DNA of 64,000 bases from Candidatus Aminicenantes bacterium (GTDB lineage: Bacteria > Acidobacteriota > Aminicenantia > UBA2199). Positions 26,201 to 29,200 of this stretch are shown here, in pieces. Each line of letters opens with the position of its first letter. Position 1 is the stretch's first letter. The stretch lies in assembly GCA_963770755.1 (NCBI GenBank), contig CAVYQZ010000010.1:807251-871250 (forward strand), written 5' to 3'. A program made the position numbers.

Positions 26201-29200
26201 AGAAGTTGGACTCGAGCGGATCAAAAGGGAGCTCCAATAGGCCGAAATGTTTTGGATATGGGGCAATTAATTGATAAAGCTCGCTGCTTTTCTGGTTGTA
26301 ATCCTTAAATTTTTCCGAATGAACCGGCCAGCGGACGCGTTCGGCGAAAACCAACAGCAGCACTAGCGCCAGGACGATTTTTTTCTTCCGGAAGCGTCGA
26401 AAAAAATAGGAAAACCCGAAAGCGGAAACCGTAAAAAAGAGGAGCAGCAGGATATATTCCGTTCGGATGCTTCGGGCGCGGAGCAGAACAGGGAACAAAC
26501 GAGCCAAACCTTGAAACAGGTTGAAAAAAGGCAAACTGATTTGGCTTGAATAGAATTGCAAAATGATCCAGGTGATCGTAAGTAGAAGAAGGGTGCGGGG
26601 AATCTTTTTGCGGATCAAGAAAAGGAGTAGGGAAAGGCTCAAAAGAAATGACAGGAGTGTCCAACCGCATAGTCGATTCAGTAAGTTCAACGGCAAACCG
26701 TTACAGCTGATGGGCAGGGCCAAGGCCGGGACAATTAGAAAAACCGAGCAAACCAGGGCAGTTGTTTTTTGCAGGAGGTTTTCAAAGTAAGGCACAAAGG
26801 CGAGGAGGAAAAAAATGAATATACTGATTCCCGGGCAGAATGGAGATTGATGCCAGACAATGCCTTTGAAAAAAAGGAGAAGATAGGACCAATTGCTGTA
26901 AAAACTCAGCGGGGTTCGAAAATGATTGGGCGAGATGGATTTACTTTCGGTGACAATGGAAAAGGAGGTTTCCTGACTCAGGTAAGGGAGAAAGATCAGG
27001 ACCACGGAAAGGATGAATAAAACGAAAGCCGCGCTGAGAAGGAGCCAGGATCGCCGGGGCATGAGGCCGAATATAATTTGCTGGACCAGAAAAAAAATCC
27101 CCAGGGCAATTCCCAGGAAAAGGCCCAATGAAAGATCAAACAGAAATTGGGAAAGAAGTGAGAGAAAAAAGAAAACCAGGTCTTTTTTTCTACCCATTTT
27201 TAGAAATCGCGAAAAAAACAGGAGGGTAAGTGGAATTGGAAAACTGAACAGCAGGTTTAATTGGGGGATATTGTGAACCCGGTAAGGCATGAGAATGTAC
27301 AGGGCCCCAACAACCCAGGCGATCCAGCGTTCAGCAACCCATTCGCGCGCAAATCGATAGGCACAGTAGCCAGAGGCAATGTATGCAAAAAAAGTCAGAA
27401 AATTGTATAAAAAACACACGTTGCGGATATGAACAAAATAAAACGGTAAAACCAGCAGAGTTTGGCCGAAAAGATTGATTCCCGCGATTAAAGTATGGGA
27501 CAAGGGGAAAAGGATGGGCAGTTGGAATAAATTCAGGAGATCGCCCTGGGTGATTTTATTCAAATTGGAAAACAGGATCGCCAGAGAAAGGCGAATATCG
27601 CCATTTGAAGCAAAGGGGAGCTAGCTGAAAAAATGGGTCAAAAGCGGATAGAGAATCAGCAAAGATATGAGAAAATAGGAAAAAACTATACCGGCTTCCA
27701 GGCGGTATTTATCCAGACGGTGTCTCATCGGCTGAGTGTAACACAGTCATCCCTGTTTGCCAAACACCGCTAAAAAGCCCAGTTCCCGGAACAATTCCTG
27801 TAAACAAATAAAAATCACGGCTGCATGCACAATGCCATTTCAACTGTTTCCCCTTAAATTCCGGCGTGGACAAAATCGATCTTCCTGTAGTATAAATAGC
27901 CAATGCTCGCCGACAAACGCAAACTGATTGGCGCTTTAGCCCTGATGCTGCTCCTGGTTTTTGCTTTGGCCATGCGCCTGCAGCAATGGAACCGCCTGGG
28001 GGTCCCCGATGAAGCCGCGCTGCTGAACATAACTCTGCACATCTATGACAATCCTTTCTCTAACGGCAGCTATCCAGGCTATCCGCCGCTTTTTTTTATT
28101 TCAATTTCCTGCTGGCTTTTTATCTGCCAGAAAATACTGCTCTTCTTCGGCGTCATTAATTTTCCTTCGCAATTCGTCTACTCAGACCTGGGCTACGATT
28201 TCGTCTTCAAAGCCGGAAGGATCGTGACGGCCTTGGCGGGAACGGCTCTTGTGGCCTTGACCTGGCGTATGGGGCGCGAGTTTTTCGGCCGGGCCGCGGC
28301 CTGCGGAGTTGCGGTTCCGCGTTTCAAACTGCCCAAAGGACCGACCATTGCGGCGGCATTCATCCTGGAGAAAGTCTTCGCTTTGGCAAAAAAAGAATCG
28401 TTCCTTAACCGCGGCAAACTTTCATTTTTTCTTGACCCGAAGGCAATGCTTTCCGACCGGGCGAAAGATGAACTTGGGTTCGCACCAGTGATAGATTTCC
28501 GAACTGGAGTTGCAAGGGCGGTTGGCTAGTACCGTGAGAATGACTGGCTTTGATGGTCAACCGCGGCGATCCTGCATCTTCAAGGTCCGGGCGCCGCGGG
28601 CATAGGCATATTCCGCCAGCGGACTTGAGACGACAGAGCCTGCACCGACGACCGAATGGGAACCGATTGTGACTCCGTCAAGGATAATAACGCCAGCGCC
28701 AAGCCAAACATCATCGCCGATTTGAATACCGCCCTTGGCCAGCGATGGCTGGTGCATGATGGGCTTCGAGACGTCGGCGAAGCTATGATTACCGCCGGCT
28801 ACGAGATAGCAGTTCCCGGCCAGGAAACAGTAGCGGCCGAGGGTGATCTCTGTCTCTGAGAGCAGCGTGCAGTTGGCCGAGATGTTGGTGTGGTCGCCCA
28901 GGCGGATAGAGCCTTCCTTGCAGCTCAGGATCGCGTTGCGGCCGATATAGGCTTGCTTGCCGACGCAAATGCCGTCGTTTTCTTCTCCCTTGGCGTCGAG
29001 GACCGCGAAATCGTCAATGACCGTACCGGCACCGATGCGGATCTTGTGCGGATGGCGGAAAGTCAAATAACGGCCGAAGATGACTCCCTTCCCCACTTCG
29101 CCCAACAGGGAGGGATAGAACGCCTTGCGCAGCGCGAAGCCGAGCGCCCCCGAAATCCCCGAGAGCCAGGTCAGGATCTCGTATTTTAGGAAAGCGACCG

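Follow-up and report, generated by a model that had tools for sequence, protein, structure and literature searches.

A chimeric 208-codon reading frame in an Aminicenantes glycan-modification cassette: very probable scar of a 9.29-kb deletion between short direct repeats

The ORF at 27903-28529 (+), within the 64,000-nt stretch of Candidatus Aminicenantes DNA analysed here (the window), is very probably the scar of a single 9.29-kb microhomology-mediated deletion affecting one copy of a gene cassette that exists here in two diverged versions. As read directly from the sequence, this ATG-initiated, 208-aa ORF is real and chimeric. The cassette is a cell-envelope glycan-modification cassette in a genome of the Aminicenantes/KSB1 type. 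The initial annotation had described the ORF as an in-frame chimera of a GT39 stub and an epimerase tail, joined through illegitimate recombination where the two have a short stretch in common, and this is borne out by collinearity with an undeleted reference locus, L001, and by a direct repeat at the junction.

Two truncated halves in one open frame

Residues 1 to ~131 of the ORF are the N-terminus of a GT39/PMT_2-like glycosyltransferase and residues ~131-208 come from the C-terminal portion of an NAD-dependent epimerase. Nucleotide and residue alignments show that the stub (27903-28291, +) retains about 130 codons from the 5' end of a gene whose L001 version encodes 817 aa. It contains two strongly hydrophobic segments in the hydropathy profile and a third, weaker one by eye, and the loop-1 'DE' dipeptide is present. 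The epimerase-derived segment (28304-28553, +) corresponds to codons ~240-322 of an extended-SDR epimerase gene that encodes 322 aa, as judged from the L001 alignment and from P0002, which is 92% identical over the tail. Within the ORF the tail covers epimerase residues 237-313, and the original TGA lies at 28551-28553.

A Pfam search of the 208-aa ORF matched 0 families. The PMT_2 domain occupies aa 124-260 of the paralogue GT39a, mostly beyond the part kept in the stub, and the Epimerase domain (PF01370) occupies aa 3-221 of the intact epimerase paralogue, with the ORF tail beginning at ~237. Although its halves descend from members of the GT39/PMT_2 (GT-C fold) and extended-SDR epimerase families, the ORF keeps only ~130 of 817 GT39 residues, with no PMT_2 match, and ~77 of 322 epimerase residues, without the Rossmann NAD-binding and catalytic core. 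For filing purposes it should not be assigned to either family; it is better labelled a deletion-derived remnant (pseudogene) than a hypothetical protein, a glycosyltransferase or an epimerase.

Among the 47 proteins found at E<=1e-5 the GT39 head occurs in the query alone, and the 46 others are epimerases. Most of the epimerase homologues are 322-323 aa (41 proteins) or 325-328 aa (three) in length; the short ones are two of 258-264 aa on 1-1.7-kb contigs and a 115-aa fragment on a 1.1-kb contig. Since the other homologues are epimerases and none is GT39-headed, the truncation is the derived state. No protein of the same architecture besides the ORF was found among 5.8 billion clusters, its own cluster having a single member, and none of the related loci with an epimerase showed a GT39-epimerase fusion. 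In six of these loci (L001-L005 and L007) the conserved arrangement is a full-length epimerase gene with a convergent hexapeptide transferase gene after it; in five others (L009-L011, L016 and L024) there is one full-length epimerase match, located 100-200 nt past the transferase.

Upstream of the ORF there is a promoter-like pair (27867-27896, +) consisting of TGGACA at 27867-27872, an 18-nt spacer and TATAAA at 27891-27896. The pair ends 6 nt before the ATG and belongs to the GT39 gene's own upstream region. Direct reading confirmed both hexamers, which the initial annotation had reported as retained and as making a transcribed fusion possible; both are identical in L001, and other GT39 paralogues have a comparable -35/-10-like pair 6-9 nt before their ATG. 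A strict sigma-70 consensus scan did not call the pair because its rule demands T at the last -10 position, which here is A. The same signal scan found no terminator between the ORF and the convergent gene, and an Rfam gathering scan gave no match at the locus.

The deletion and its junction

L001, from a related Aminicenantes/KSB1 MAG, serves as the undeleted reference and as a proxy for the ancestor at 87-93% identity. Window positions 26895-28303 align with L001 1-1417 (87%) and window positions 28292-34092 with L001 10708-16509 (93%), the two matches overlapping by 12 nt in the window. Both flanks are collinear with L001, and one contiguous interval of 9.29 kb is missing. This interval comprises most of the 817-aa GT39 gene (~680 codons), four whole genes (according to L001 gene content, encoding 581 aa, 264 aa, an MFP-like protein of 574 aa and a second PMT_2 protein of 538 aa) and the first ~236 codons of the epimerase gene. 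Around the junction L001 DNA is near-identical to the window, and at the protein level the L001 orthologues are ~87% (stub, gapped alignment) and 92% (tail) identical to the two halves of the ORF. Sequence comparison thus indicates that the parents of the fusion are the locus's own GT39 and epimerase genes, as represented by their L001 orthologues. Compared with the divergence from L001, the deletion is probably a recent event.

The deletion and its exact limits are seen directly in the alignment, as is the repeat that bounds it. At the junction one copy of the direct repeat, GGCCGCGGCCTG, remains at 28292-28303 (+), and the crossover falls inside it: agreement with the left parent ends at 28303, and agreement with the right parent starts at 28292. 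The two copies in L001 are GGCCGCGGCCTG at 1406-1417 and GGCCGCGGCTTG at 10708-10719, giving a repeat of GGCCGCGGC(C/T)TG that is exact over 9 nt and matches at 11/12 positions overall. It encodes Ala-Ala-Ala in both genes, and the fusion is in frame because both copies share the same codon phase (phase 2). Around the breakpoint the sequence is ...CGGGCCGCGGCCTGGGTC in the left parent, ...GTGGCCGCGGCTTGTGGA in the right parent and ...CGGGCCGCGGCCTGCGGA in the window. In the base-by-base alignment the switch between parents is seamless, with no filler DNA, IS end, recombinase site or mobile-element footprint at the junction. A simulation with random breakpoints within the two genes gave a probability of ~7e-5 for chance microhomology of at least 9 nt; hence the junction microhomology is not due to chance. 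Judged from the L001 proxy, the repeat in the actual ancestor would have been 9, 11 or 12 nt long, possibly matching at 12/12 positions. The initial annotation had placed the junction at a shared A-C-G-V tetrapeptide; this motif is present on the epimerase side only, and the shared element is the nucleotide repeat at 28292-28303.

These features are consistent with a model where one repeat copy lay at codons ~133-136 of the cassette GT39/PMT_2 gene and the other at ~236-239 of the epimerase gene, and where illegitimate recombination at this short homology removed one copy together with the interval, through either replication slippage or repair of the single-strand-annealing type. It is the length of the repeat that suggests RecA-independent slippage or annealing. 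The GT39 promoter region and ATG would now drive, at most, the 208-aa product, a putative protein whose N-terminal part has 2-3 transmembrane segments and whose C-terminal part is a non-catalytic SDR fragment of ~77 residues.

We regard an assembly or binning artefact, in which two places in the genome were misjoined or strain variants collapsed, as highly improbable. The source is evidently a MAG, and the presence of two paralogous cassettes in the region carries a risk of misassembly, but both flanks are of the copy 1 type (87-93% to L001) and not of the copy 2 type (~70%). A 12-nt repeat is, moreover, shorter than typical assembler k-mers, and a junction overlap of this length is too short to mislead an assembler. 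Further evidence against an artefact comes from a 3005-bp Logan contig (ERR12035938, which may share its source sample with the genome) that encodes an identical 208-aa ORF and was seen in 2 samples. Downstream of the ORF it has the same order of genes, namely a hexapeptide transferase gene and then a + strand gene truncated at the edge of the contig.

Deletions between short direct repeats were reportedly described in E. coli lacI by Albertini et al. in 1982. The present case resembles such deletions in that one G+C-rich copy of 9-12 nt is left, its partner has gone along with the interval and without filler, and genes are inactivated, here in a genome region that may be under relaxed constraint. 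It differs in its extent, with 9.3 kb and six genes affected, in the joining of unrelated genes in frame, so that a 208-codon ORF stays open, and in that slippage or annealing is the putative mechanism here. Deletion between short G+C-rich direct repeats is a documented route of bacterial gene loss, and has been termed 'deletogenic replication slippage' at the G+C-rich repeats of Sodalis-allied symbionts (PMC4948707). The ORF is an ordinary gene remnant and not a new kind of gene, and it represents no new mechanism or system. Its value is mainly for annotation; in addition, it documents cleanly and to the base how G+C-rich direct repeats of 9-12 nt bounded a natural deletion of several genes in a phylum without cultured members (Aminicenantes).

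The second cassette copy and the parents of the fusion

A second, diverged copy of the cassette was located at 34377-47775 by self-blastn, translation and tblastn of the L001 proteins against the window. It contains an intact membrane-protein gene (35138-37303), GT39a (37429-39960), a degenerate GT39b (40250-42262), a p581-like gene (42382-44421), an MFP-like gene (44267-45976) and an intact epimerase gene (46268-47236). In tblastn its identities to the L001 proteins are 55% and 31% for the GT39 proteins, 63% for p581, 61% for p264, 69% for MFP and 72% for the epimerase. The deletion was probably tolerated through this copy (34.4-47.8 kb), which holds intact paralogues for most of the deleted genes. 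The redundancy is incomplete, in that tblastn at E <= 1e-6 found no homologue of the deleted 538-aa PMT_2 gene in the window. Copy 2 itself lacks the acetyltransferase core and the carbamoyltransferase, and the two cassette copies show reciprocal decay.

Reciprocal gene loss after duplication (fractionation) by deletions flanked by short repeats is known from maize homeologs (PMC2893956). As in maize, two homologous blocks here each lose different members, at least one of the losses having occurred between short direct repeats. The present locus is, in contrast, bacterial, with ~10-13 kb per copy and one deletion junction resolved to the base, and its second copy may stem from an ancient duplication or from horizontal acquisition. 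It illustrates how two copies of a glycan-modification cassette within one genome decay in a reciprocal fashion.

The presence of copy 2 bears on the origin of the ORF, since the initial annotation had taken a GT39 paralogue (37483-37900) and the epimerase at 46268-47236 as the genes that recombined, at the ACGV motif. Both are significantly similar to the respective halves. ORF aa 25-133 align with the PMT_2 gene at 37555-37890 (34% identity, E=7e-11), in keeping with the proposed PMT-like start, but this is not the best in-window match to the N-terminus, which is the gene at 40250 (60% aa identity over aa 1-77, E=3e-19). Similarly, ORF aa 131-207 align with 46976-47206 (69% aa identity, E=3e-31), which upholds the epimerase origin of the tail, although the matching residues are 237-313 and not the last ones of the epimerase. 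At the nucleotide level, where a lack of significance would have spoken against the tail assignment, 28297-28697 matches 46980-47407 at 69% (E=5e-49 / 2e-47).

Despite these similarities, an origin from the two in-window genes is extremely improbable. They are old paralogues, with 34% aa identity for GT39a, 69% aa and nucleotide identity for the epimerase and saturated synonymous divergence, as against ~87% and 92% for the L001 orthologues. GT39a lacks ACGV and reads ...FFDQRIAWLAAL instead. The nucleotide homology to the epimerase locus extends past the ORF stop, so the whole segment is homologous, which fits paralogy of the entire cassette and not the copying of a gene piece. The three-way alignment with the in-window paralogues proposed in the initial annotation located the switch roughly, but with a spurious extension (ATGGGGCGCGAG versus ATGGCGCGCGCG), and is superseded by the comparison with L001.

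Between the ORF tail and the epimerase at 46268 pS is 0.70 (saturated) and omega is 0.10; we rejected this omega as a sign of purifying selection on the tail, given the old paralogy and saturated dS. No closer relative of the copy 2 epimerase with more than 76% identity was present among the matches. A GDSL-lipase gene that appears split in the window (aa 1-149 at 33654-34100, aa 186-540 at 53207-52143) was considered as an inversion breakpoint and rejected. Its N-terminal match probably reflects an over-extended ORF call, because in L001 the 540-aa call and the 663-aa gene before it share 438 nt, read in different frames.

Lesions, selection and possible function

Relative to L001, a TGG codon has become TAG at 28527-28529, which cuts the last 8 epimerase codons off the ORF. 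The stub carries three further lesions in the interval 28079-28120 (+), as seen in the nucleotide alignment: the loss, after 28079, of 9 nt that make up one GYP repeat unit, a -1 indel at ~28094 and a +1 indel at ~28118, the last two in T-runs. The indel pair recodes ~8 codons (FYFNFLLAFV to ISISCWLFI) and the frame is restored within ~24 nt. The window state of this stretch is derived, because GT39a (the gene at 37429) keeps the L001-like 'LFMYLNFVL'. The ORF is thus both truncated relative to its orthologues and marked by a nonsense change, a 9-nt deletion and compensating indels, as befits a gene remnant. The divergent neighbour (25620-27728, -), a large membrane-protein gene encoding 705 aa in L001, has, at codon 36, an in-frame TAG (27623-27621) in place of the CAG of L001, and is part of the same decaying cassette copy.

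It is very unlikely that the fusion is a functional new gene, encoding a small membrane-anchored protein expressed from the GT39 promoter (possibly as a leaderless mRNA) and kept by selection. The frame is intact over 208 codons with its native ATG and L001-identical -35/-10-like hexamers, the indels in the stub restore the frame, omega against L001 is below 0.3 in both halves, and the depositor's annotation calls the ORF a protein. Against this, the ORF is alone in its cluster with an architecture unique to it, the nonsense mutation removes 8 conserved residues, and neither the PMT_2 core nor any of the Rossmann/catalytic part of the SDR is left in the pieces kept. Furthermore, a low omega is expected if most of the divergence from L001 predates a recent deletion, and the gene next to the ORF in this cassette copy has been inactivated too. 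A young, expressed de novo fusion gene, yielding from a leaderless transcript a 2-3-span membrane protein that displays an SDR substrate-domain fragment, retained by selection and perhaps modulating the glycosylation machinery of copy 2, is very unlikely; if true, selection on it would account for the open frame and the compensated frameshift. The ORF may be transcribed, and what its sequence suggests is a probably functionless remnant in a decaying, redundant gene cluster.

Omega against L001 is 0.29 for the stub and 0.17-0.19 for the tail, compared with 0.06-0.19 for the intact neighbours (only 7-15 non-synonymous differences). The values for the two remnants are just slightly above those of the neighbours, which fits a recent deletion and is also compatible with constraint. 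The open 208-codon frame together with the compensated stub frameshift could hint at selection on the frame, either before or after the deletion.

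The GT39/epimerase chimera and its relatives in the window

The ORF at 27903-28529 (+ strand, ATG start, 208 codons) is a true GT39/epimerase chimera. A tblastn search of its product against the window gave three significant matches. Residues 131-207 aligned with 46976-47206, towards the 3' end of the epimerase gene at 46268-47236 (322 aa; 69% amino acid identity, E=3e-31), residues 1-77 with 40250-40468 (60%, E=3e-19) and residues 25-133 with 37555-37890 (34%, E=7e-11). The epimerase similarity reported in the initial annotation is also significant at the nucleotide level, 28297-28697 aligning with 46980-47407 (69%, E about 1e-48), so that the outcome named there as refuting the chimera did not occur. 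The N-terminal stub had been related to the gene at 37483 (GT39a), but its closest relative in the window is the gene starting at 40250 (GT39b). The tetrapeptide A-C-G-V, proposed as the shared junction motif, is present in the chimera and the epimerase and absent from every GT39 paralogue (GT39a reads ...REFFDQRIAWLAAL), hence it is not the common motif.

A Pfam search of the chimeric ORF matched no family. In the neighbouring genes it identified PMT_2 (37429 gene; residues 124-260 of GT39a), Epimerase/SDR (46268; Epimerase at residues 3-221 of the intact protein), Hexapep (28557-29300, - strand) and carbamoyltransferase (29536-31356). The pieces kept in the chimera lie almost wholly outside the catalytic domains PMT_2 and Epimerase.

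Self-comparison of the window revealed two diverged copies of one gene cassette, copy 1 at 24668-31922, which contains the chimera, and copy 2 at 34377-47775. The matching segments are 24668-25379 with 34377-35087 (76%), 25748-27719 with 35266-37237 (72%), 27903-28097 with 40250-40453 (70%), 28297-28697 with 46980-47407 (69%), 29206-29310 with 47401-47505 (80%) and 31662-31922 with 47516-47775 (81%). Homology between the epimerase-derived tail and the epimerase region does not stop with the coding sequences but reaches, beyond the stop codon of each, into the 3' end of the convergent gene for the hexapeptide transferase; the homologous units are entire segments rather than a piece of a gene. 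Synonymous divergence between the two copies is saturated, with pS 0.70 and omega 0.10 for the tail against the 46268 epimerase and a dS of 1.35 for the membrane-protein pair. Given this saturation, the in-window genes are old paralogues of the two halves and not the parents of the chimera, as had been supposed.

A 9.29-kb deletion between short direct repeats

A search of the chimera against 5.8 billion protein clusters matched 46 epimerases besides the chimera itself, which lies on a 1.03-Mb contig and is the only member of its cluster; no GT39 head is present among the epimerase matches. Match lengths were 322-323 aa (41), 325-328 aa (three), 258-264 aa (two, on 1-1.7-kb contigs) and 115 aa (one fragment, on a 1.1-kb contig). 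The best match, P0002, is 92% identical to the tail, carries the labels candidate division KSB1 and Candidatus Aminicenantes bacterium, and lies on RQOH01000170.1 of GCA_003854975.1 (locus L001); L002 and L005 have the same sequence. L001 encodes, in order, a membrane protein (705 aa, -), a PMT_2 protein (the GT39, 817 aa, +), a 581-aa protein (-), a 264-aa protein (+), an RND-MFP-like protein (574 aa, +), a second PMT_2 protein (538 aa, +), the epimerase (322 aa, +), the hexapeptide transferase (247 aa, -) and the carbamoyltransferase (608 aa, +). By blastn, window 26895-28303 corresponds to L001 1-1417 (87%) and window 28292-34092 to L001 10708-16509 (93%). These alignments share 12 nt (window 28292-28303), and the interval absent from the window is exactly L001 1418-10707 (9.29 kb).

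At the junction the left parent (GT39, L001) reads ...TTTTTCGGCCGGGCCGCGGCCTGGGTCGCC..., the right parent (epimerase, L001) ...CGAACCGTGGCCGCGGCTTGTGGAGTTACG... and the window ...TTTTTCGGCCGGGCCGCGGCCTGCGGAGTTGCG.... The parents share the exact 9-nt repeat GGCCGCGGC, with 11 of 12 positions identical over GGCCGCGGC[C/T]TG, and base-by-base alignment shows one repeat copy left in the window and no filler. The repeat encodes Ala-Ala-Ala in both genes (GRAAAW in the GT39, VAAACG in the epimerase) and lies in codon phase 2 in both, a shared phase that accounts for the in-frame fusion. The tail and copy 2 read GCC TGC where L001 reads GCT TGT, so that the ancestral repeat may have been a perfect 12-mer. 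Among 2 million random breakpoint pairs simulated within the two L001 genes, microhomology of at least 9 nt occurred at a frequency of 7e-5. Microhomology-mediated recombination, as first proposed, is upheld in kind, with a different motif (the 9-12-nt Ala-Ala-Ala repeat) and different parents (an L001-type GT39 and epimerase).

This junction anatomy is that of a deletion between short direct repeats, a class of event reportedly described in lacI by Albertini et al. in 1982. We are confident that the chimera is the scar of such a 9.3-kb deletion, in an Aminicenantes-type MAG whose glycan-modification cassette is redundant and decaying. It is a further example of a well-known process by which bacteria lose genes and which G+C-rich repeats favour (PMC4948707).

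That the chimera arose as an assembly artefact is barely credible. Both flanks of the junction are of copy-1 type, and an overlap of 12 nt is too short to mislead an assembler. Furthermore, an identical 208-aa protein is encoded on a 3005-bp contig of a separate Logan assembly (ERR12035938; contig seen in 2 samples), where the next genes are the hexapeptide transferase and a + strand gene truncated at the contig end.

In L001 the GT39 and the epimerase each have their full length. In L003 and L004 a full-length epimerase, sharing 77% identity with the tail, precedes the convergent hexapeptide-transferase gene, as it does in most other epimerase-containing Aminicenantes and related MAG loci in a genome scan; because of this distribution the truncation is the derived state. 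In L006 (JALOLC010000150.1, 744-4011, an Acidobacteria MAG) a full-length GT39 homologue, 61% identical to the 817-aa L001 protein, directly adjoins the hexapeptide-transferase gene, and the epimerase and four intervening genes are missing; the block deleted in the window is thus also variably present between lineages. Epimerase homologues in two MFD MAG loci (L008 8131-9094 and L020 10777-11745) were recovered as two or three separate tblastn pieces, which could be frameshifts from either real decay or long-read homopolymer errors.

Lesions, redundancy and reciprocal loss

Comparison with L001 shows that one 9-nt GYP repeat unit is deleted from the stub, and that a -1 and a +1 indel, both in T-runs and about 24 nt apart, change about 8 codons (FYFNFLLAFV to ISISCWLFI). 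GT39a keeps the L001-like sequence, hence the window state is derived. In the tail, TGG has become TAG at 28527-28529, eight codons ahead of the original TGA at 28551-28553. The divergent membrane-protein gene of the same copy (25620-27728, - strand, ATG at 27728) has TAG at codon 36 (27623-27621) where L001 has CAG; its sole remaining open frame is a TTG-restart ORF of 647 aa. Measured against L001, the stub has a dN/dS of 0.29 and the tail one of 0.17-0.19, compared with 0.06-0.19 for intact neighbours at a dS of about 0.2, values resting on so few substitutions that they neither prove nor exclude relaxed selection. Such values are expected of a deletion that happened recently compared with the divergence from L001.

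Loss of the deleted genes would be tolerable with copy 2 encoding homologues. The L001 GT39 is matched by GT39b (40250-42262, +; 55% amino acid identity) and by the intact GT39a (37429-39960; 31%), the 581-aa protein by 42388-44127 (-; 63%), the 264-aa protein by 51270-51998 (-; 61%), the MFP-like protein by 44267-45973 (69%) and the epimerase by the intact 46268-47233 (72%). For the deleted 538-aa PMT_2 gene, the window yielded no homologue at E <= 1e-6. Copy 2's epimerase had no closer relative among the matches, which reach at most 76% identity.

GT39b is itself degenerate. It has lost an internal stretch, the catalytic-core region (roughly L001 nt 1212-1651), and an in-frame stop of the TAA/TGA type at 41351-41353 divides it into two ORFs, 40193-41353 and 41405-42262. 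Copy 2 has also lost the central part of the hexapeptide-transferase gene and the entire carbamoyltransferase, whereas copy 1 keeps the two genes intact (95% and 97% amino acid identity to L001). The losses thus differ between the copies and are reciprocal. Over 47236-47505 and 47507-47775, copy 2 keeps just the two ends of the hexapeptide transferase (residues 202-246 and 1-32). A 52-aa DUF5989 ORF is retained in both copies, 96% identical to that of L001 in copy 2 (47617-47772) and 100% in copy 1 (31764-31919).

Possible expression and the wider region

The promoter-like pair noted in the initial annotation is present: TGGACA (27867-27872) and TATAAA (27891-27896) are separated by an 18-nt spacer, and the latter ends 6 nt upstream of the ATG. 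A strict sigma-70 scan did not list this pair because its -10 element ends in A. The upstream 36 nt with both hexamers (27867-27902), together with the ATG, are essentially identical in L001. Similar pairs lie 6-9 nt before the ATG of all other GT39/PMT_2 paralogues examined, at 37483 (37447-37482), 40250 (40214-40249), L003 and L004 (upstream of 14130) and L006. This recurrence points to a genuine promoter from which a leaderless or nearly leaderless mRNA would arise, and to 37483 instead of 37429 as the actual GT39a start.

With the promoter-like region and ATG kept, a transcript and a 208-aa product are possible, as had been proposed. Hydropathy analysis of the chimera gave two strong hydrophobic segments (residues 5-29 and 62-88), and a third, weaker one near residues 103-121 was judged by eye. 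Function is unlikely since the product is unique, carries extra lesions and lacks the catalytic parts, and we consider it very improbable that the chimera is a young expressed fusion gene under selection.

The block at 34092-53257 (about 19 kb), which holds copy 2, replaces about 3 kb in L001 (16509-19546), through either a gain in this lineage or a loss in that of L001. Within it a GDSL-lipase-like gene (52143-53207, -; 59% identical) and a p523-like gene (47991-49514, +; 29% identical) are inverted relative to L001. The block is a hypervariable, rearranged region between conserved flanks. A cobalamin riboswitch (RF00174, 53283-53462, +; 62.5 bits, E=4e-13) immediately precedes an ORF for a TonB-dependent receptor (53459-55324), which also flanks the cassette in L001, L003 and L004. 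G+C content falls to 33-36% at 10001-16000, against 41-48% immediately adjacent and up to 58% elsewhere in the window, and this stretch is possibly a horizontally acquired block within an envelope-polysaccharide region.
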